From a virus (Duplodnaviria; Caudoviricetes): DNA of 55,787 nt. The notes under the pieces were generated by a model that was not told the origin of the DNA, did no database searches, and saw only the letters and a list, made by a program, of their open reading frames with translations. The first letter of the stretch is position 1. Each line of letters opens with the position of its first letter. Position numbers and translations under genes: made by a program. The stretch spans positions 1-55,787 of the IMG/VR virus record IMGVR_UViG_3300036852_000461; one strand, given 5' to 3'. Below are positions 10,445-53,274 of the stretch, piece after piece.

Positions 10445-10988
10445 CGCGCTCAAGGGCAAGGCGCCGACCAAGCGTGACTTCGAGCGGGCCTGGACCACGA
10501 CGCTCTCCGGCTGGTCTTGGTGGGGCGATTCATACATGGCGATCCGTGGGGTCCCGTTCTGGCCCGACCTTGAGGTCGAGGATCTCGAAGCGCGCCAGAA
10601 GAGATCCGATCGTCGCTTCTCGCCGACGAAGCTGCGAGCTGCGCTGCTGCGCGTCATCCGGCAGCACAACCGCGGGGAGACGTTGCCAATCCGAGTCTCG
10701 GATATCGCTACCTTCGAGTCCTTGGGCGGTCCGTACCCCGTTTGTGTCGCACGGTCGGCGCGAAACGGCCAGGCAATACGCGGCTCAGATGGTGGCCCAT
10801 GCGTCATCAATGCCGGGTTCGCTTCCCTGCTTGAGCGACGGATCAAGGACGGTCAGTGGTTCGTCTCCGCAGATCGGCAGATGTTCATCTACGACGTGGC
10901 CGGGCGCGCACGCGCGATCGTCATGGGCATCCGGACGGGCGGTAGGCCGGTCGTTCCTTCCCACTCCGCTACCGGGGACCAGGGGTGA
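10437..10988 (+). CDS. Hypothetical protein
   Basis: Overlapping start, coupled stop; ends AIVMGIR plus a repeat-encoded tail. Confidence 0.6.
   Translation: MSNALKGKAPTKRDFERAWTTTLSGWSWWGDSYMAIRGVPFWPDLEVEDLEARQKRSDRRFSPTKLRAALLRVIRQHNRGETLPIRVSDIATFESLGGPYPVCVARSARNGQAIRGSDGGPCVINAGFASLLERRIKDGQWFVSADRQMFIYDVAGRARAIVMGIRTGGRPVVPSHSATGDQG
10931..10969 (+). repeat. 39-bp direct repeat, copy 1
   Basis: CCGGACGGGCGGTAGGCCGGTCGTTCCTTCCCACTCCGC, identical to 12189-12227. Confidence 0.95.
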
Positions 10989-12188: not shown

Positions 12189-12227
12189 CCGGACGGGCGG
12201 TAGGCCGGTCGTTCCTTCCCACTCCGC
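12189..12227 (+). repeat. 39-bp direct repeat, copy 2
   Basis: Identical to 10931-10969; lies in the 34-codon ORF 12151-12255. Confidence 0.95.
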
Positions 12228-28836: not shown

Positions 28837-28895
28837 CCGCGGGTGCTGACCCGTGGAGGCGACGTGATCCACGTCGTTTCCTCAGGAGGTCAGCA
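28837..28895 (+). ncRNA. Structured leader motif, copy 1 (capsid)
   Basis: CCGCGGG-TGCTGA-CCCGTGG-AGGCGACG, second hairpin, then AGGAGGTCAGCA. Confidence 0.7.
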
Positions 28896-46834: not shown

Positions 46835-47887
46835 ATGTCGTACTCAGCCGGCGGCACCCTCGGTTGCGGCTCCTGGAGGGCGCGCCTGCTTGAGCGCGGC
46901 GGAAGTCGGACGATCCTCGAATTGCCTGCGACCTCGGCTCGGCACACGCGGGCGCGGTCAACGTTCTCGACAGGGTCGTGCTTCGTGGCCCTGTCCGAGG
47001 TGCCGGACTACTGCTACGGGCCACTGGCAAAGATCAGACCGTGGGAGCACGAGCTTGAGCTGGTGCGGGACGGTGAGACGAAGTGGCTCGGCCCGATCTC
47101 GGAGGGTCTGGGATTCTCACGCGCCGGCGTGGCCATCCGTGCGCGGGACTGCTCGCACTGGGGCGAGCGACGCGTGCATCCGGTCGACCGCAACATCACC
47201 GACGATCTCGCCCGCATCTTCGAGCTGTTCGTGGCCGACGCCATGCTCGAGGACCCCTCACCAGGTCTGAGCGTGGATCTCGTCGAACTCGGCACAATCG
47301 GTAACCGGACGGTGCTGCGCAGCGAGGCCAAGTACGTGGCCGATTCGCTTCGCGAACTCGCCGACAGCGGCCTCTATTACACGACGCTGCTGCGGCAGAT
47401 CCGCGTGCGCCCGGACGGGGTAGGCGAGACGGTCGGGACCCTGCTCGATGCCCATGTGCAGATCGAGTCCGAAGCGACCCTGGACGGACTGTCGTTTGCC
47501 TCGGAGTTCATCGTGGTCGGTGAGCAGCCTGCGGACGCCACGAGCAGCACGCCAATCGTAGGACGCGCCGGCGGTTTCGACGAGCGCACGGGTCTGGTGC
47601 AGATCACCGATCGCCAGACGGGCTCGAACAACACCCTCGATGCCACCCATGCCGCGCAGGCGGGTCTGGCCGAGGCGAGCACCGAGCCGGTGGCCCTACC
47701 GGTGAAGCTGCAGCAGACGACCCCTCTCGATTACGACGATCTCGTACCCGGCAACCACGTCCCGGTATTGCTGACGCTCGGTGTCTATGTCCTGAACGAA
47801 ACTCTGACCATCGACTCGATGTCGATGGATGCCGCACTGAGCGAGCAGATCACGCTGAACCTCGTGCGCAAGGTAGAGGCGGCCTGA
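46835..47887 (+). CDS. Minor tail (hub-like) protein
   Basis: LGCG, PW.HEL...RDGE..W.GPI, DLVPG. Confidence 0.7.
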   Translation: MSYSAGGTLGCGSWRARLLERGGSRTILELPATSARHTRARSTFSTGSCFVALSEVPDYCYGPLAKIRPWEHELELVRDGETKWLGPISEGLGFSRAGVAIRARDCSHWGERRVHPVDRNITDDLARIFELFVADAMLEDPSPGLSVDLVELGTIGNRTVLRSEAKYVADSLRELADSGLYYTTLLRQIRVRPDGVGETVGTLLDAHVQIESEATLDGLSFASEFIVVGEQPADATSSTPIVGRAGGFDERTGLVQITDRQTGSNNTLDATHAAQAGLAEASTEPVALPVKLQQTTPLDYDDLVPGNHVPVLLTLGVYVLNETLTIDSMSMDAALSEQITLNLVRKVEAA

Positions 47888-48354
47888 TGCCCCGTCGCCC
47901 GCGAGCGCTGCCCGATCGTGTCGCACATCTGGAGCAGCTGTTTCGCAACCTGCGCACGGGTGCTGGTGTACCCGGTGAGACGGGAGCGACCGGATCCCCA
48001 GGCGCAGACGGTGTGGGCAAGGCGGCCTACGACTGGACGAACAATGCCACTCTCGTTCGCGTCGGCTTCGGGCAGCGCAAGTATGCCGATCGCGACGGAA
48101 CGATCCTCTACGTGCGAGCCGAGCGCAGCGCAGGCGATGGCAGCGGCGCGGCAACCTTCGATGTCACGAAGAACGGGGTGTCGATCTTCCCGTCCGCGAC
48201 CAAGCCGACCATCCCCGCATCCTCATTCCTCGGTACGGAGCGCGTGCCCGATGACGTCGACTTCGTCAAGGGCGATTACTTCCAGATTCACACTGAGACG
48301 ACGGGCAACGGCACCGGACCGGTGGTCGTGACCATATTTTTCCAGGAGGTCTAG
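47887..48354 (+). CDS. Minor tail protein
   Basis: Short Gly-X-Y stretch; FDV.KNG.SIF...KPTI. Confidence 0.7.
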   Translation: MPRRPRALPDRVAHLEQLFRNLRTGAGVPGETGATGSPGADGVGKAAYDWTNNATLVRVGFGQRKYADRDGTILYVRAERSAGDGSGAATFDVTKNGVSIFPSATKPTIPASSFLGTERVPDDVDFVKGDYFQIHTETTGNGTGPVVVTIFFQEV

Positions 48355-48360
48355 ATGGCG

Positions 48361-48813
48361 TTATCGAAGACCGCGCGCGCGACGCCGTCGCTGAGCGAGT
48401 TTGGTCCTCTCGCGATGGCAGATCGAACAGACTCGGTGATTCGGGCGCGAGGGGAAGAATGTGTCATATGGATGCCCCTTCGGGCAATGCGTCTTGCGTG
48501 TTTCCTTGCTCCGTCGCTTCCGCGCGGAGTCGCGCATGTTGTCGCTCCGCGTTCCGAGGAACAGGTGCGCCGGGTTGCAGCACGCCCGGTTGTCGCATCG
48601 GTGACAGACGTGCAGGCCGTTTGGGATCGGACCATAGACCAATTCGTACGAGACGCGATGCGCGCCTACGGCTCCGCCGTATTTCCCCCCTCTCCCAATA
48701 GCTCCATAACCATTCGCGTACCTTGCGCCAGTCCACTCCCAGCATTGCGTCCAATGGCGCTTATCGACCTTGGGCCAGAACCGTTCCTCGATAGGTCGAG
48801 CGGGACAGGACAT
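48361..48813 (-). CDS. HNH endonuclease (antisense)
   Basis: [50 protein letters not shown]. Confidence 0.92.
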
Positions 48814-48844
48814 CGGCAGTTGTTATCACGAGGAGGTAAACGCC

Positions 48845-49831
48845 ATTAGCTTCGATTCAGGAGTGATCACCAGCGCCACCCCGCACGCGGCGCTCGCGAC
48901 GAAGATCAAGGCGCTTTTCGGTGGGTCGGGCGTCGCCAACTGGTCGTTCGTCGAGAACATCCCGGCCGGGACGGGGGCAGGTCAGTCGGGCTCGGCGTCC
49001 TACTCGATCGACGTCTACAAGTGCGCGGGAAGCGGGACCGACGCGAACGACGCGGCGACGGACTGGTACGTAGCGTGGCGGCTGCCGGTGACGGACGGTG
49101 CTGTGAGTTCCAATTTCAATGTGTTCGAAGACTACGAGGGTGGTACGAACAAGCGGTTCAAGCGTCCAGTTGCAGGGCCCGCTGTTCAAGCCCCAACGGG
49201 TACGGGGTTCTGGCGTTCTGACACTTATGCCGCCGCTGCAAGCGTGGTCGGTGTCCAGCAGGAGACCATTTTCACGCTCAACACGACTGGCTTCTCGTAT
49301 TGGATCAAACTGACAAAGAATGGCATCTGGGTAACGTGCCAAGTCGGTAGCACTCTCGGAACCCACATCGCTCTGCTCGGTGACACGATGGTCGCCTCAG
49401 GTGTCGCGACGGACTCGTGTCCACTCTTTGCGCACGGAGCCGGAGGCGGTTCGGGTATCGAAGCGTCCAGAGAACCTGGTGTGACTGACGGTACGAAAAC
49501 AAAATGGAACTATGGAGAATGTGCTCCTTGGACTCTGTTAGCAGGAAGCAACGCACCAAACAACAACGATCTCTTCCAAGGGAATAAGGTTGCCCTTTCA
49601 CGCATCTGCGTCCTGAGGACAGGGGGAGCAGGAGTGATCAACCTCATTGGTGCCTTCCGGGCATTGCTGAAACCAGAATTGATCCTCTGTTTCCAGACGG
49701 GTGGGACGGTGAACATCGGCGACACGATAGTCATCAACGGCGTCACTTACGTTGTGATGTGGCCCGGTACGGGAACGTTCGGAGCCTTCATAGTCACGAA
49801 CGCCTTCGTGTTGGTGACCCCTCAAACCTGA
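48845..49831 (+). CDS. Minor tail/receptor-binding-like protein
   Basis: Gly/Ser/Thr-rich frame ending GDTI.ING.TY.V. Start uncertain: ATT 48845 after GAGGAGG, or GTG 48863. Confidence 0.7.
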   Translation: MSFDSGVITSATPHAALATKIKALFGGSGVANWSFVENIPAGTGAGQSGSASYSIDVYKCAGSGTDANDAATDWYVAWRLPVTDGAVSSNFNVFEDYEGGTNKRFKRPVAGPAVQAPTGTGFWRSDTYAAAASVVGVQQETIFTLNTTGFSYWIKLTKNGIWVTCQVGSTLGTHIALLGDTMVASGVATDSCPLFAHGAGGGSGIEASREPGVTDGTKTKWNYGECAPWTLLAGSNAPNNNDLFQGNKVALSRICVLRTGGAGVINLIGAFRALLKPELILCFQTGGTVNIGDTIVINGVTYVVMWPGTGTFGAFIVTNAFVLVTPQT

Positions 49832-50139
49832 TGGCCGTCCTCACGCCGGGCGAGAGCGTCTTCGTGGGTGACTACGCCGATGCGGGCGATGCGACCGTGC
49901 AGGCGGGAAGCGCCAGCTCGGGCTGGCAGGTCTGGGACAGCTACACCTTCGTCCCGTCCGCGACGTTCGCACTCACACCAGGCGAGGCCGTCTTCGTCGG
50001 GGACTACGCGGACAAGGACGACGAGACCGTCAAGGCTCACGAGGCCGACTCAGGATGGAAGATCTGGGGCGACTACGTCTTCATGGGCGAGTTCCCGACC
50101 AACAAGCCGTGTCCGGACGTGTGGGCGGTCATCGGATGA
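49831..50139 (+). CDS. Small protein of two tandem ~45-aa repeats
   Basis: LTPGE.VFVGDYAD..D.TV.A....SGW..W..Y.F twice. Confidence 0.75.
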   Translation: MAVLTPGESVFVGDYADAGDATVQAGSASSGWQVWDSYTFVPSATFALTPGEAVFVGDYADKDDETVKAHEADSGWKIWGDYVFMGEFPTNKPCPDVWAVIG

Positions 50140-50146
50140 AGGACGG

Positions 50147-50175
50147 TTGAGTCCAGCACCCGTCTGACGTAGCCT
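50147..50175 (+). promoter_or_regulatory. Promoter upstream of leader motif copy 4
   Basis: TTGAGT-17-TAGCCT. Confidence 0.6.
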
Positions 50176-50192
50176 GACCTGGTAGCCACGGC

Positions 50193-50258
50193 CCGTGGGT
50201 GCTGACCTGCGGAGGCGACGAGGCCGTTTCGTCGTGTTCCGAAGGAGGACCCACCCGG
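50193..50258 (+). ncRNA. Structured leader motif, copy 4
   Basis: CCGTGGG-TGCTGA-CCTGCGG-AGGCGACG, second hairpin, then AAGGAGG; lacks GGTCAGC. Confidence 0.65.
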
Positions 50259-50282
50259 ATGCCCTGTGGATGCGTGGAACCA

Positions 50283-50924
50283 CTACGAACTCTGTTCTCG
50301 CAAACGCGCACGCCGCTCGCGCGTCTTCTCGCGAAGGCACGCAAGGCAGTATGGGATGCCTCGATAGGTTCGCCGTTGATGCTCCGAACGCAGATGGCCG
50401 CGCGGACAGTAGAGGTCGGGTTCCTTCGGTGGCTGAGCGGCTCGTCGGGCGGCGCGGTACTTCTCTGCGCGCATCCTCGAGCAGGTCTTGCAGAGTCGGT
50501 TTCCATTGGAGAGCCGCGTGGTGTTGGCCTCGTCGAACGGATGCCCGCGCAGGCAATGCGTGAGGCCGCGCCACTTCGCGGCTCCACCTTGTCGTCCAGC
50601 GAGCCAGTTCTCGCGCTGCGTTGTGATCCGGAGGTGGTCGAGTTCGTAGCACCGGCGATGCGGACAGAGCCCTTCGGCCACGACGCAGAGGCCGAGTGCC
50701 GCCGCTTCGTTGTGGCAGGTGTGGTCGAGCGTCATCCCATCTGGGATCGGCCCGCGCATCTTCGTCCAAACGTAGCGGTGGACGACCCAGACCCTTCCTT
50801 CGACCTTCACTCGTCCATATCCGAGTCCGTTCATGTAGCCCTTCCAGAGCAGACAGCCCTCGGGCGTCCGCTCGCCGTTGGCGAGGACTTCGTCGAGCGT
50901 CCAGGGCTTGTTGCGTCGAGCCAT
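50283..50924 (-). CDS. HNH endonuclease (antisense) with two Zn modules
   Basis: GCLLW.G..GYG..VHR..LDHTCHN..C..DHL...REN; THCLRGH and YCPRGH. TGtTATGCT 8 nt upstream of the ATG. Confidence 0.9.
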   Translation of the reverse strand: MARRNKPWTLDEVLANGERTPEGCLLWKGYMNGLGYGRVKVEGRVWVVHRYVWTKMRGPIPDGMTLDHTCHNEAAALGLCVVAEGLCPHRRCYELDHLRITTQRENWLAGRQGGAAKWRGLTHCLRGHPFDEANTTRLSNGNRLCKTCSRMRAEKYRAARRAAQPPKEPDLYCPRGHLRSEHQRRTYRGIPYCLACLREKTRERRARLREQSS

Positions 50925-50947
50925 CGGGAAGGAGCATAACACACCCC

Positions 50948-51613
50948 ATGCCATGCGGATGCGTCGAGGCTTCTATACTTGGGTGCCAGTGCGTGACCGA
51001 AGACTCGGACACGATCAAGTGGTCGGGCGCGGGAAGCTCAAGCTCCAAGTGGAAGGTCGATGCCATCATCGACCCTCTCGCGCGCAACCTGCTCTCGAAG
51101 AGTTCATCGGGCCTGCTGGTCGATCCGAACGATATCCCCGACTTCATGCGCATCCTCGGTGGCAACTACGGCGACGGCCCGTCGCCCGGATGGGTGCTCA
51201 GCGGCGATACATACGAGGACTGGGGTGGGACGGACTTCACGCGCAAGAGCTTCACCAAGGTCGGCAGCGACAGTGAGACCGATCTGCTGATCCTGTTCGC
51301 GGTCTCAGGCTTTCTCATCGACACCGGCCAGACCGGATCATGCGTGGTGGATGTCGGCGTGGAGGTCGGAGCGGGCAACGACGTCGGGACCCGGCCGTTC
51401 GGTCTGAGTTGGCCCACCGCAGTGAACGCCGACGGCTCGCAGATGTACGAGCACTACACGAACTTCGTGGCGGAGAGCGATGTCCCTGCCGGCGCGCTCA
51501 ACATCCAGCTCCGGGGAAAGATCCGCGAGAGCGACCACCAGTTCAAAGCCGACCTCAACTCCGGTTTCGCGTTCCTGGTCATCGAGGTTCCCGCATCGGT
51601 GACGTTCTCGTGA
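50948..51613 (+). CDS. Minor tail/structural protein
   Basis: SD GAAGGAG; CGC...C.C...DSDTI..SG.G.......NLL....GLLV. Confidence 0.7.
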   Translation: MPCGCVEASILGCQCVTEDSDTIKWSGAGSSSSKWKVDAIIDPLARNLLSKSSSGLLVDPNDIPDFMRILGGNYGDGPSPGWVLSGDTYEDWGGTDFTRKSFTKVGSDSETDLLILFAVSGFLIDTGQTGSCVVDVGVEVGAGNDVGTRPFGLSWPTAVNADGSQMYEHYTNFVAESDVPAGALNIQLRGKIRESDHQFKADLNSGFAFLVIEVPASVTFS

Positions 51614-51990: not shown

Positions 51991-53274
51991 GTGTCCACGC
52001 CCATCCTGCATGCTCCGCGCGCCACCGAATCGCAGGCCGCCGTGTGGGCCTCATCCAAGGGCGCACCGAGCTACTGGCTCACGCTCATCCCCACGTTCTG
52101 GCGGGTAGCGCAGAGCGTCGGCGTCGACCCGGCCGTCGCCTTCGCGCAGAGCTGCAAAGAGACGGCCTTCGGTCTGTTCGGCGGTGTCATCGACGCGACC
52201 TACCACAACCCGGCCGGGATCAAGCGAGCCGTCGGCGGTGGCAACTACGACCCGAACGCTCATATGCGCTTCGCGTCGTGGGCCGAGGGGATCGCCGCCT
52301 TCGTCCATCACCTCGCGTTGTACGCCGGCGCGTCCGGCTTCCCGCTCGCCGTCACACCGGACCCGCGCCACTTCGCCTCGCTGCTCGGCACCGCGCCGAG
52401 CGTCGAGGACCTGGGCGGCAAGTGGGCGCCGAACAGTGCCTACGGACACGAGGTCGTCGCGATGGTGCGCGAGATGTCAGGCGAGCAGGAGTCGGCGATG
52501 GTCGGTGATTCCCCGCTGGTGACCTCGTTCCTCCAAGCGCGGTTCTTCGGCGGGGACAACGGCACCGTCACGCGAATCGTCGTTCATGACGAGGAATACG
52601 CCGAAGGTCCGAACAGCGCCGAGCAAATCGCGCAGTACTTCCACACGATGCCGGACGGACGCAAGGCGAGCGCGACCTACGTCGTCGATCGCGACAGCAT
52701 CGTGCAGTGCGTTCGTGAGAGCCGTATCGCCTACCACGCGCCACCGAATGCGGGTTCGATCGGGATCGAGCACGACGGCTACATGCACCAGACCCGGGCC
52801 GAATGGCTCGATGCCGAGAACGGGGTCCTGACGCTCAAGCGCTCGGCCGCGCTGGTCGCCGATATCTGCAAGCGCCACGCCATCCCGGTCGTCCGTCTGT
52901 CGGTCGCCGATCTCAAGGCGGGCAAGCGCGGACTGTGTGGGCACGTCGACGTCAGCAACGCATGGCACCAGACCGACCACGGCGACCCGGGCCCGAACTT
53001 TCCGTGGGATGTGTATCTCGGATGGGTCACGCAGGCCGCGAACGGAGAGGAGCTACCGGTGGACCAGGACAAGTTCAACGCTTTGATGGACGCCTACTAC
53101 ACCGACGCCAAGACCAAGGGCGGGCAGGTCTGGAAGGCGCTGTTCTCCAAGCTCGCCGTCGGGCCGAACGGCGAGAAGCAGGACGTCGAGCTCGACACGA
53201 TCGTCAAGGCCGTCGCCAAGCAACAGGGCATCGACGTGACGGCCGCCGTGAAGGCATACCTAGGGGGTTCGTGA
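51991..53274 (+). CDS. Endolysin: glucosaminidase-like domain plus Amidase_2
   Basis: AQS.KET.FG.FGG..HNP.GIK...F.SW..GI..HL..YAG..DPRH...L.GKWAP..YG; then IVVH, SA.Y.VD, AYHA..N..SIGIE, GH.D, H.DPG..FPW. Confidence 0.9.
   Translation: MSTPILHAPRATESQAAVWASSKGAPSYWLTLIPTFWRVAQSVGVDPAVAFAQSCKETAFGLFGGVIDATYHNPAGIKRAVGGGNYDPNAHMRFASWAEGIAAFVHHLALYAGASGFPLAVTPDPRHFASLLGTAPSVEDLGGKWAPNSAYGHEVVAMVREMSGEQESAMVGDSPLVTSFLQARFFGGDNGTVTRIVVHDEEYAEGPNSAEQIAQYFHTMPDGRKASATYVVDRDSIVQCVRESRIAYHAPPNAGSIGIEHDGYMHQTRAEWLDAENGVLTLKRSAALVADICKRHAIPVVRLSVADLKAGKRGLCGHVDVSNAWHQTDHGDPGPNFPWDVYLGWVTQAANGEELPVDQDKFNALMDAYYTDAKTKGGQVWKALFSKLAVGPNGEKQDVELDTIVKAVAKQQGIDVTAAVKAYLGGS

Follow-up and report, generated by a model that had tools for sequence, protein, structure and literature searches.

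An Antisense HNH Gene between Two Copies of a Gene Start

The stretch of DNA analyzed here, referred to as the window, is a 55,787-base virus record of IMG/VR (IMGVR_UViG_3300036852_000461), the completeness of which is estimated at 76%. In its tail-to-lysis part, which is bounded by a minor tail gene upstream (46835-47887; phrog_837) and an endolysin gene downstream (51991-53274), a gene for an HNH endonuclease lies backwards ahead of a tail-region gene and is flanked by two copies of the start of that gene (Table 1). The peptide MPCGCVE is encoded at 50259-50279 as ATG CCC TGT GGA TGC GTG GAA and again, at a spacing of 689 nucleotides (nt), at 50948-50968 as ATG CCA TGC GGA TGC GTC GAG, both on the + strand. 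The two copies are identical at 17 of 21 nt and in 7 of 7 amino acids (aa), all four of the differing codons being synonymous. Both ATGs are preceded by GAAGGAG (50241-50247 and 50928-50934), and the spacers between this motif and the ATG are partly similar as well; beyond the two copies, 0 of the next 7 aa are in common. The stop codon of the HNH gene lies 3 nt past the seventh codon of the upstream copy, and its start codon is separated by 3 nt from the second GAAGGAG.

The duplication is genuine and goes beyond chance. Both flanks of 42 related HNH loci and of the window were scanned for shared 7-mers, a length that overlooks the five-codon repeat of one of these loci, L014 (see below). The best flank-to-flank score of the window was 45, as against a mean of 24 (standard deviation 2.8, maximum 36) for 150 mismatched flank pairs, which places the window repeat 7.5 standard deviations above these controls. 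Among random single changes in codons 2-7, 12 of 54 are synonymous, and the probability that four changes out of four are so is ~0.002. Elsewhere in the window, a repeat finder listed a perfect direct repeat of 39 nt (family D12; 10931-10969 and 12189-12227), the copies of which are spaced by 1258 nt. One 43,591-base contig of sequencing run X1, which is probably the source of the record and hence not an independent witness, spans the whole stretch without differences. The contigs of this run, the only DNA run with the stretch, include no form without the HNH gene, and no RNA run is listed as containing the stretch. A joint in an X1 contig from 48582 to 50709 (side 20) was disregarded, as it links similar parts of the two HNH genes of the window.

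The product of the HNH gene matches PF13392 (E 1.5e-8, 34.6 bits for a cut-off of 24.8) and phrog_826 (E 6.6e-41). Its reading frame is intact, with neither stop nor frameshift, and residues H49, R50, H68, C124, G127, H128, C145, and C148 (window numbering) are invariant in an alignment of 11 antisense HNH genes. The ATG at 50954 was rejected as its start, since the closest relatives align from 50924 instead. Searches with tblastn gave matches in 893 phage records; the 30 matches listed were annotated as HNH endonuclease (one of them as endonuclease), except for one without annotation. From IMG/VR, 42 loci with a related HNH gene were returned, and 359 stretches match the family alignment. As judged from these profile and alignment matches, the gene belongs, in intact form, to a large family of actinophage HNH genes. 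A group I or group II intron was rejected: nowhere in the window does a match to an Rfam family attain the gathering score, and what is repeated on the two flanks is the start of a coding sequence rather than an exon junction. An intein was rejected as well: the HNH gene is on the opposite strand, and the product of the sense frame has no Pfam match and ends before the gene start, in another frame.

The target gene encodes an N-terminal module composed of Met, a few residues, C-G-C, six residues, and G-C-Q-C. This module is also N-terminal in P0002, which originates from a Logan contig and is the only close homolog (51% identical), and in ~15 more distant homologs; because relatives conserve it at the same place, the true start is 50948. 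The part of the module that follows the cysteine motif is present in 5 to 12 copies in the large proteins P0004, P0016, P0012, and P0019 (510-1059 aa), and it is therefore a repeatable domain rather than merely an N-terminal anchor. No relative of the region or of the target gene was found by megablast, blastn, or tblastn in 50,697 phage records, nor was a relative of the target found by a protein search of IMG/VR. With a two-sequence alignment as the query, JGI metagenomes and GTDB genomes also yielded no relative of the target gene. A degenerate DNA pattern for the CGC...GCQC motif matched 38 IMG/VR stretches, one of which (L051) encodes the module, and an IMG/VR search with the L051 target returned only L051 itself.

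Table 1. Features of the two antisense HNH loci of the window, in the order of their positions.
Feature	Position	Strand	Basis
Second shadow open reading frame (ORF), 164 codons, in phase with the second HNH gene	48355..48849	+	Frame analysis
Second antisense HNH endonuclease gene, 150 aa	48361..48813	-	Profile matches
Gene after the second HNH gene; ATT at the start position	48845..49831	+	Alignment with relatives
Leader copy 4; core GGGTGCTGACC at 50197-50207	50186..50232	+	Motif scan
Shine-Dalgarno-like GAAGGAG of the putative native (remnant) start	50241..50247	+	Sequence inspection
Putative native gene start left as a remnant (7 codons, MPCGCVE)	50259..50279	+	Repeat comparison; analogy with L029/L163 and L014/L166
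Shadow ORF, 226 codons, from the remnant start; in-phase antisense of the HNH codons	50259..50939	+	Frame analysis
HNH endonuclease gene, 213 aa; HNH_3 core and C-terminal zinc-ribbon-like repeats	50283..50924	-	PF13392, phrog_826
GAAGGAG belonging to the functional start; HNH start codon (opposite strand) 3 nt away	50928..50934	+	
Functional copy of the first 7 codons (MPCGCVE), putatively rewritten; differs from the remnant by 4 synonymous changes	50948..50968	+	
Target gene, 221 aa, between the minor tail gene and the endolysin gene	50948..51613	+	Conserved N-terminal module

The Leader Motif Upstream of the First Copy

The upstream copy of the gene start stands behind a leader of ~30 nt, the core of which, GGGTGCTGACC, occurs exactly four times in the window, at 28841, 35399, 41519, and 50197. 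With one mismatch allowed there are eight matches, as against 1.6 expected. Copies 1 and 3 stand 58 and 65 nt before the starts of their genes, and the start at 50259 lies 62 nt after copy 4; given the similar spacing, 50259 is where the native start would be expected. In copies 1-3, the ribosome-binding site is directly followed by GGTCAGC, the complement of part of the leader core, which copy 4 alone is without. No Rfam match to the leader was found when the window was scanned, and the consensus fold of the four leaders is a weak hairpin (-14.1 kcal/mol), with double changes in 3 of 13 pairs. The leader could be a phage-specific promoter or a translational operator.

Most of these features had been described in an earlier, sequence-only reading of the window. 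The coordinates and codons that it gave for the synonymous MPCGCVE repeat behind GAAGGAG were verified, as was the 226-codon sense frame (50259-50939) that it had traced across the antisense HNH gene to a stop 8 nt before the second start. Its remark that copy 4 is the sole leader copy without GGTCAGC was borne out by comparison of the four copies.

Related Loci and HNH-Free Alleles

The same architecture is found in three other IMG/VR phages (L002, L029, and L014), all with related HNH genes. The HNH gene of L002 is the closest relative of that of the window (53% identical) and lies backwards before a homolog of the same tail-region target; remnant and functional start are identical there in 9 of 13 aa and at 27 of 39 nt. 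Two tandem paralogs of the target family follow the HNH gene in L002 (2699-3346 and 3349-3957, - strand), the HNH gene and the remnant standing before the first only. The HNH gene of L029 is a more distant relative, situated backwards before a replication-initiator-like gene, with 13 of 17 aa shared between remnant and functional start. In L014, a backwards HNH gene precedes a phrog_644 gene, and MAITA is encoded twice. A fourth phage, L051, which was found via the N-terminal motif pattern, has a related backwards HNH gene directly before a homolog of the window target; its start duplication, ATG AGC vs. TTG AGT, was set aside as too short to count.

For two of these loci, HNH-free counterparts are available for comparison. 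L163 has the same gene order as L029 with a single start, and its first 22 residues match the L029 remnant in 21 of 22 aa. The functional copy of L029 agrees with L163 in 13 of 17 aa and at 31 of 51 nt over the comparable stretch, and just past the junction the agreement is 41 of 44 aa. Similarly, L166 is the counterpart of L014, the encoded protein being 99% identical to the L014 target. Between its first five codons and the L014 remnant, 15 of 15 nt agree; the L014 functional copy differs from L166 by four synonymous changes in codons 1-6 (14 of 18 nt, 6 of 6 aa) and matches it at 124 of 132 nt in codons 7-50. The presence or absence of the HNH gene thus differs between close relatives exactly at the boundary of the duplication. 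By this comparison, the start that stands upstream in L029 and L014 is native, and the one that follows the HNH gene is rewritten and borne by the insert. Because the remnants match the HNH-free alleles and the functional copies are rewritten, the insert carries a replacement gene start. At both loci, the displaced end matches the insert-free relatives and the functional end is divergent in DNA and conserved in protein, which is the pattern of a replacement gene end.

The proposal that the endonuclease had split its target at the gene start and had brought a recoded start with it is therefore supported by the L163/L029 and L166/L014 pairs. The single start matching the upstream remnant that was predicted for HNH-free alleles is likewise seen in L163 and L166, which are analogous loci and not from the phage of the window.

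In two further loci a backwards HNH gene lies, with no duplication, directly before another type of gene, namely a tape-measure-like gene in L113 (2805-2811) and an amidase-like lysin gene in L011 (3812-3820). In these two loci, a gap of 1 or 3 nt separates the ATG from the preceding stop of the frame that mirrors the HNH codons on the opposite strand (the mirror frame). From these layouts it follows that the HNH family also inserts between genes.

The Shadow Frame across the HNH Gene

The sense frame that begins at the upstream ATG is the exact codon-for-codon antisense of the HNH frame; it would comprise 246 codons if counted from a GTG at 50199, and it stops with TAA (50937-50939) 8 nt before ATG 50948. 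This shadow ORF was rejected as a real protein gene, as it matches no Pfam family and its sequence is dictated by that of the HNH gene. Stops in the mirror frame can arise only from TTA, CTA, and TCA, which account for 0.75% of codons.

Openness of the mirror frame was surveyed among HNH loci classed by the strand of both neighbors, with gene calls made from G+C content at third codon positions. A frame was counted as open if it was stop-free, in phase, over the HNH core, and the expected openness was predicted from the codon usage of each locus. Four loci of unclear class were left out (L013, open; L098, L123, and L138, closed), L082 was dropped as it is on the same contig as L051, and L039 and L035 were removed as duplicates of L038 and L005. 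Where the HNH gene is antisense to both neighbors, the frame was open in 12 of 19 loci vs. 4.9 expected (Poisson-binomial P 5e-5), a count in which three of the open cases (L029, L114, and L154) were classed by hand after inspection. With the automatic classes only, it was open in 9 of 16 antisense vs. 14 of 54 co-oriented loci (Fisher P 0.027). Where the HNH gene is co-oriented with both neighbors, 14 of 54 frames were open vs. 19.7 expected. This deficit is what would be seen if co-oriented HNH genes had more A/T-ending Leu and Ser codons than their hosts, and it makes the antisense excess a conservative one. The open antisense cases include several loci of 52-61% G+C for which the probability of an open frame, P(open), is 0.02-0.12. 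In L029, for instance (54% G+C), a 242-codon shadow ORF with a P(open) of 0.019 ends 1 nt before the new start.

The position of the stop was also compared. In 11 of 14 open cases, both HNH genes of the window included, the mirror-frame stop lies between -4 and +8 nt from the downstream start, as against a similarly near stop in 2 of 14 for a control frame (Fisher P 9e-4). The stop-start arrangements are ATGA or TTGA in three cases, TGATG in two, and gaps of 1, 1, 2, 3, 5, and 8 nt in six.

The Second Antisense HNH Gene of the Window

The window holds a second antisense HNH gene of the same layout (Table 1). The ATG of its shadow ORF abuts the stop of the gene at 47887-48354 (TAGATG), and the shadow stop, TAG at 48847-48849, overlaps an ATT at 48845 that stands 8 nt after GAGGAGG (48830-48836). 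Among 26 relatives of the gene at 48845 that were examined, 23 begin with Met or Val, the other 3 being called shorter. In those 23, the first residue is followed by a small one, an aromatic one (W, F, or Y), and, a few residues on, a conserved G-x-I-T. The window sequence at 48845 is in register with them (ATT-S-F-D-S-G-V-I-T). As far as the alignment indicates, the gene thus seems to be without a canonical start, and it may rely on re-initiation after the shadow ORF. A possible remnant of an interrupted start, ATG GCG at 48355-48360, is too short to serve as evidence. Start calling seems to fail at such rearranged starts: in public gene calls, the target gene begins 15 codons late (P0001), and the gene at 48845 is begun at an internal GTG (P0034).

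A Probable Cassette with a Replacement Start and Its Rivals

The explanation that best covers these observations, and that probably holds although with considerable room for doubt, combines a mobile cassette that carries a replacement start with a bridge formed by the shadow frame. The first part is very likely, whereas a functional shadow ORF is an evenly poised proposition. A free-standing HNH homing-endonuclease cassette of 689 nt (50280-50968) would have been inserted antisense after codon 7 of the tail-region gene. It would consist of the HNH gene, a ribosome-binding site of its own, and the synonymously rewritten first seven codons; because the cassette would supply this start, the target gene would be intact without an intron or an intein. 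The native ribosome-binding site, start, and seven codons would stay upstream as a remnant behind leader copy 4. The endonuclease, for which site-specific cleavage is a predicted property, would cut the insert-free gene in its first codons, and repair would proceed from the occupied allele. Rewriting would probably shield the resident allele from recognition by the endonuclease, and it would probably also block the recombination between direct repeats that would delete the insert. The segment that is rewritten is the one that is repeated, which suggests selection on that segment. Lastly, ribosomes entering at the native site would translate the whole insert and reach their stop codon beside the real start, and the bridge would thereby preserve translational coupling and avoid polarity on the late operon.

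Several points weigh against this account. For the window's own gene, searches of phage records, IMG/VR, JGI metagenomes, and GTDB gave no HNH-free relative, so that the terms native and imported are applied to the window by analogy and from the position of the leader. The left junction varies across the three phages with the target family of the window, lying after codon 2, 7, or ~14, and this variation is not explained by simple precise homing. The varying joins would reflect either independent non-homologous events or later trimming of the remnants. A consensus scan of 49900-51300 detected no promoter-like site on either strand, neither for the HNH gene nor at the shadow stop, where the sequence-only reading had placed an overlapping -10 box, which is unsupported; no terminator-like site was detected in that interval either. 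As to the bridge, the functional start has a GAAGGAG of its own, and coupling is hence unnecessary for initiation at 50948. In L002, the remnant ORF ends after 18 codons, out of phase. A stop beside a start could be the relic of an older gene junction, and the hand-classed loci belong to the open cases on which the survey excess is counted.

The latter points bear on a first rival explanation, which accepts the cassette with its replacement start but holds the shadow ORF to be a mere side effect of high G+C content and an old junction stop, 50948 being translated solely from its own GAAGGAG. Given the Leu and Ser content, P(open) is 0.32 for the HNH gene at 50283-50924 and 0.42 for the other one, and the mirror frame is also open in 3 of 13 ordinary window genes of 150-250 codons; for the window alone, the open frame could be due to chance. 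The frame is closed in 7 of 19 antisense HNH genes, L002 among them, and the bridge would therefore be frequent rather than universal. Set against a 1-in-2 chance of a frame match, moreover, the 11 stops out of 14 that lie near a start have a P of 0.029. Yet a by-product of base composition does not readily account for an excess of open frames that is found among antisense loci (12 of 19 vs. 4.9) and not among co-oriented ones (14 of 54 vs. 19.7), nor for open frames at loci of 52-61% G+C where P(open) is 0.02-0.12. The stop-start distance of at most 8 nt in 11 of 14 cases and the ATT at the start position of the gene after the second HNH gene also speak against it, and on balance this rival appears rather unlikely. 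The suggestion that the shadow ORF carries ribosomes from the leader to the real gene thus gains nothing from the window alone (P ~0.3) and is favored by the survey, both by the open frames and by the position of their stops; the transit of ribosomes as such is presumed.

An origin other than homing, in which a local rearrangement (unequal recombination, for instance) took place around an HNH gene that is resident or domesticated rather than mobile, would be compatible with the left junctions that vary among the three phages, and mobility and cleavage of the HNH protein are predicted properties. It is nevertheless very improbable, given that the HNH gene is present or absent at the exact duplication boundary in two analogous loci, that its family adjoins unrelated genes in different phages, and that all four differences are synonymous (P ~0.002), unlike those expected of a decaying local duplicate. 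That the repeat is a chance resemblance or an assembly artifact, as might be suspected from its shortness (21 nt, missed by a DNA repeat finder with default seeds) and from the fact that the only run with the stretch is probably its own source, is scarcely tenable in view of its score relative to the mismatched-flank controls, the position of both copies at a start codon behind the same ribosome-binding motif, the same layout in three independent contigs, and the X1 contig that covers the stretch without differences, albeit not independently.

If the cassette is bridged in the manner proposed, a wider hypothesis may tentatively be put forward, namely that actinophage antisense HNH genes are selected to be "translationally transparent" by means of a mirror ORF that runs from the left edge of the element to the start of the next gene. 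The left edge would then often be the remnant of an interrupted start, or a start coupled to the stop of the upstream gene, and the element could reside within the opening codons of a gene, or inside a late operon that is essential, and polarity would not ensue. Dependence on the bridge may have evolved in some hosts; in the window, the gene at 48845 has an ATT at its start position, and this ATT is overlapped by the shadow stop. Together with the rewritten start, such transparency would constitute a third way for a homing endonuclease to reside inside a gene, beside introns and inteins.

Relation to Known Systems

Some integrating elements carry a replacement for the end of their target gene, as is the case for the 3' ends of tRNA genes at phage attachment sites. 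Like the phage loci described here, such elements restore the gene with their own copy of its end and leave a displaced partial copy behind. They differ in that they employ site-specific recombinases and identical core repeats, whereas an endonuclease, presumed recombinational repair, and diverged repeats characterize the phage loci. Among phage endonucleases, the gene 60 insert of the MobA/gene 60 bypass cassette is reportedly transferred together with MobA and shields the resident allele against cleavage, and mobE of Aeh1 is said to split nrdA. A keyword search of open-access full texts found no description of a backwards phage endonuclease gene with a native gene start on one side and a rewritten one on the other.

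Of the systems described so far, mobile endonuclease ORFs (mORFs) of fungal mitochondria come nearest. In their description, mORFs carry a foreign gene end in atp6 of Allomyces macrogynus and in atp6, atp9, cox2, and nad3 of Glomus, and the foreign C-terminal segment displaces the native one, which matches close relatives (PMC3630166). The two kinds of loci share an endonuclease ORF in a protein gene, a duplicate terminal coding segment, and independence from splicing, and in both the displaced native segment matches relatives and the inserted segment is divergent in DNA and conserved in protein. In contrast, the mORFs described there duplicate the 3' end (C terminus), and the phage loci the 5' end with ribosome-binding site and start. 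The mORFs encode mitochondrial LAGLIDADG or GIY-YIG enzymes on the same strand and often in phase, and the phage loci HNH enzymes on the opposite strand. A stop-free sense frame bridging the insert is a feature of the phage loci and not of the mORFs in that account.

In actinophages, HNH genes have been described that are hidden out of frame in methylase genes, the host frame being stop-free across the insert (PMC11855218). As described, the ShiLan HNH resembles that of the window in that it is from an actinophage, has zinc-finger flanks, and lies within the coding sequence of a host gene whose frame stays open, without being an intron or an intein. It is, however, encoded on the same strand in another frame, lies in the middle of the gene, and forms part of the host protein by read-through, whereas the window HNH gene is antisense, lies at the gene start next to a duplicated start, and would give a read-through product separate from the host protein. 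The words antisense, reverse, and opposite, and any form of duplicat-, are not mentioned in that text (PMC11855218).

The free-standing homing endonucleases of T4-like phages (seg, mob) are a further point of comparison. A review of them includes an antisense segD, promoter displacement, and a stop-start coupling proposed for nrdA/mobE (PMC2988022). Like the HNH genes considered here, these free-standing endonuclease genes lie beside or inside conserved phage genes and must fit the expression program of the host. The same review describes neither a duplicated, rewritten start nor a frame bridging an antisense endonuclease, and the word "duplication" occurs 0 times in it (PMC2988022).

Significance

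The loci described here bear on how selfish genes are accommodated within the coding sequences of phages. To our knowledge, homing endonuclease genes are usually thought to persist in coding sequence solely by means of a self-splicing intron or an intein, and otherwise to lie between genes. The phage loci point to another route, in which the element itself would supply the rewritten first codons, the ribosome-binding site, and the start, and for which occupied and empty alleles can be compared in two cases. The survey suggests, in addition, that the non-coding strand of a selfish gene is itself under selection, by which a frame is kept open there for the ribosomes of the host, which would link the biology of mobile elements with translational coupling and polarity. 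For annotation, gene callers missed the true starts at such loci, and remnant starts and shadow ORFs can pass for genes. Finally, the pairs of native and rewritten sequences point to the likely recognition sites of these endonucleases.

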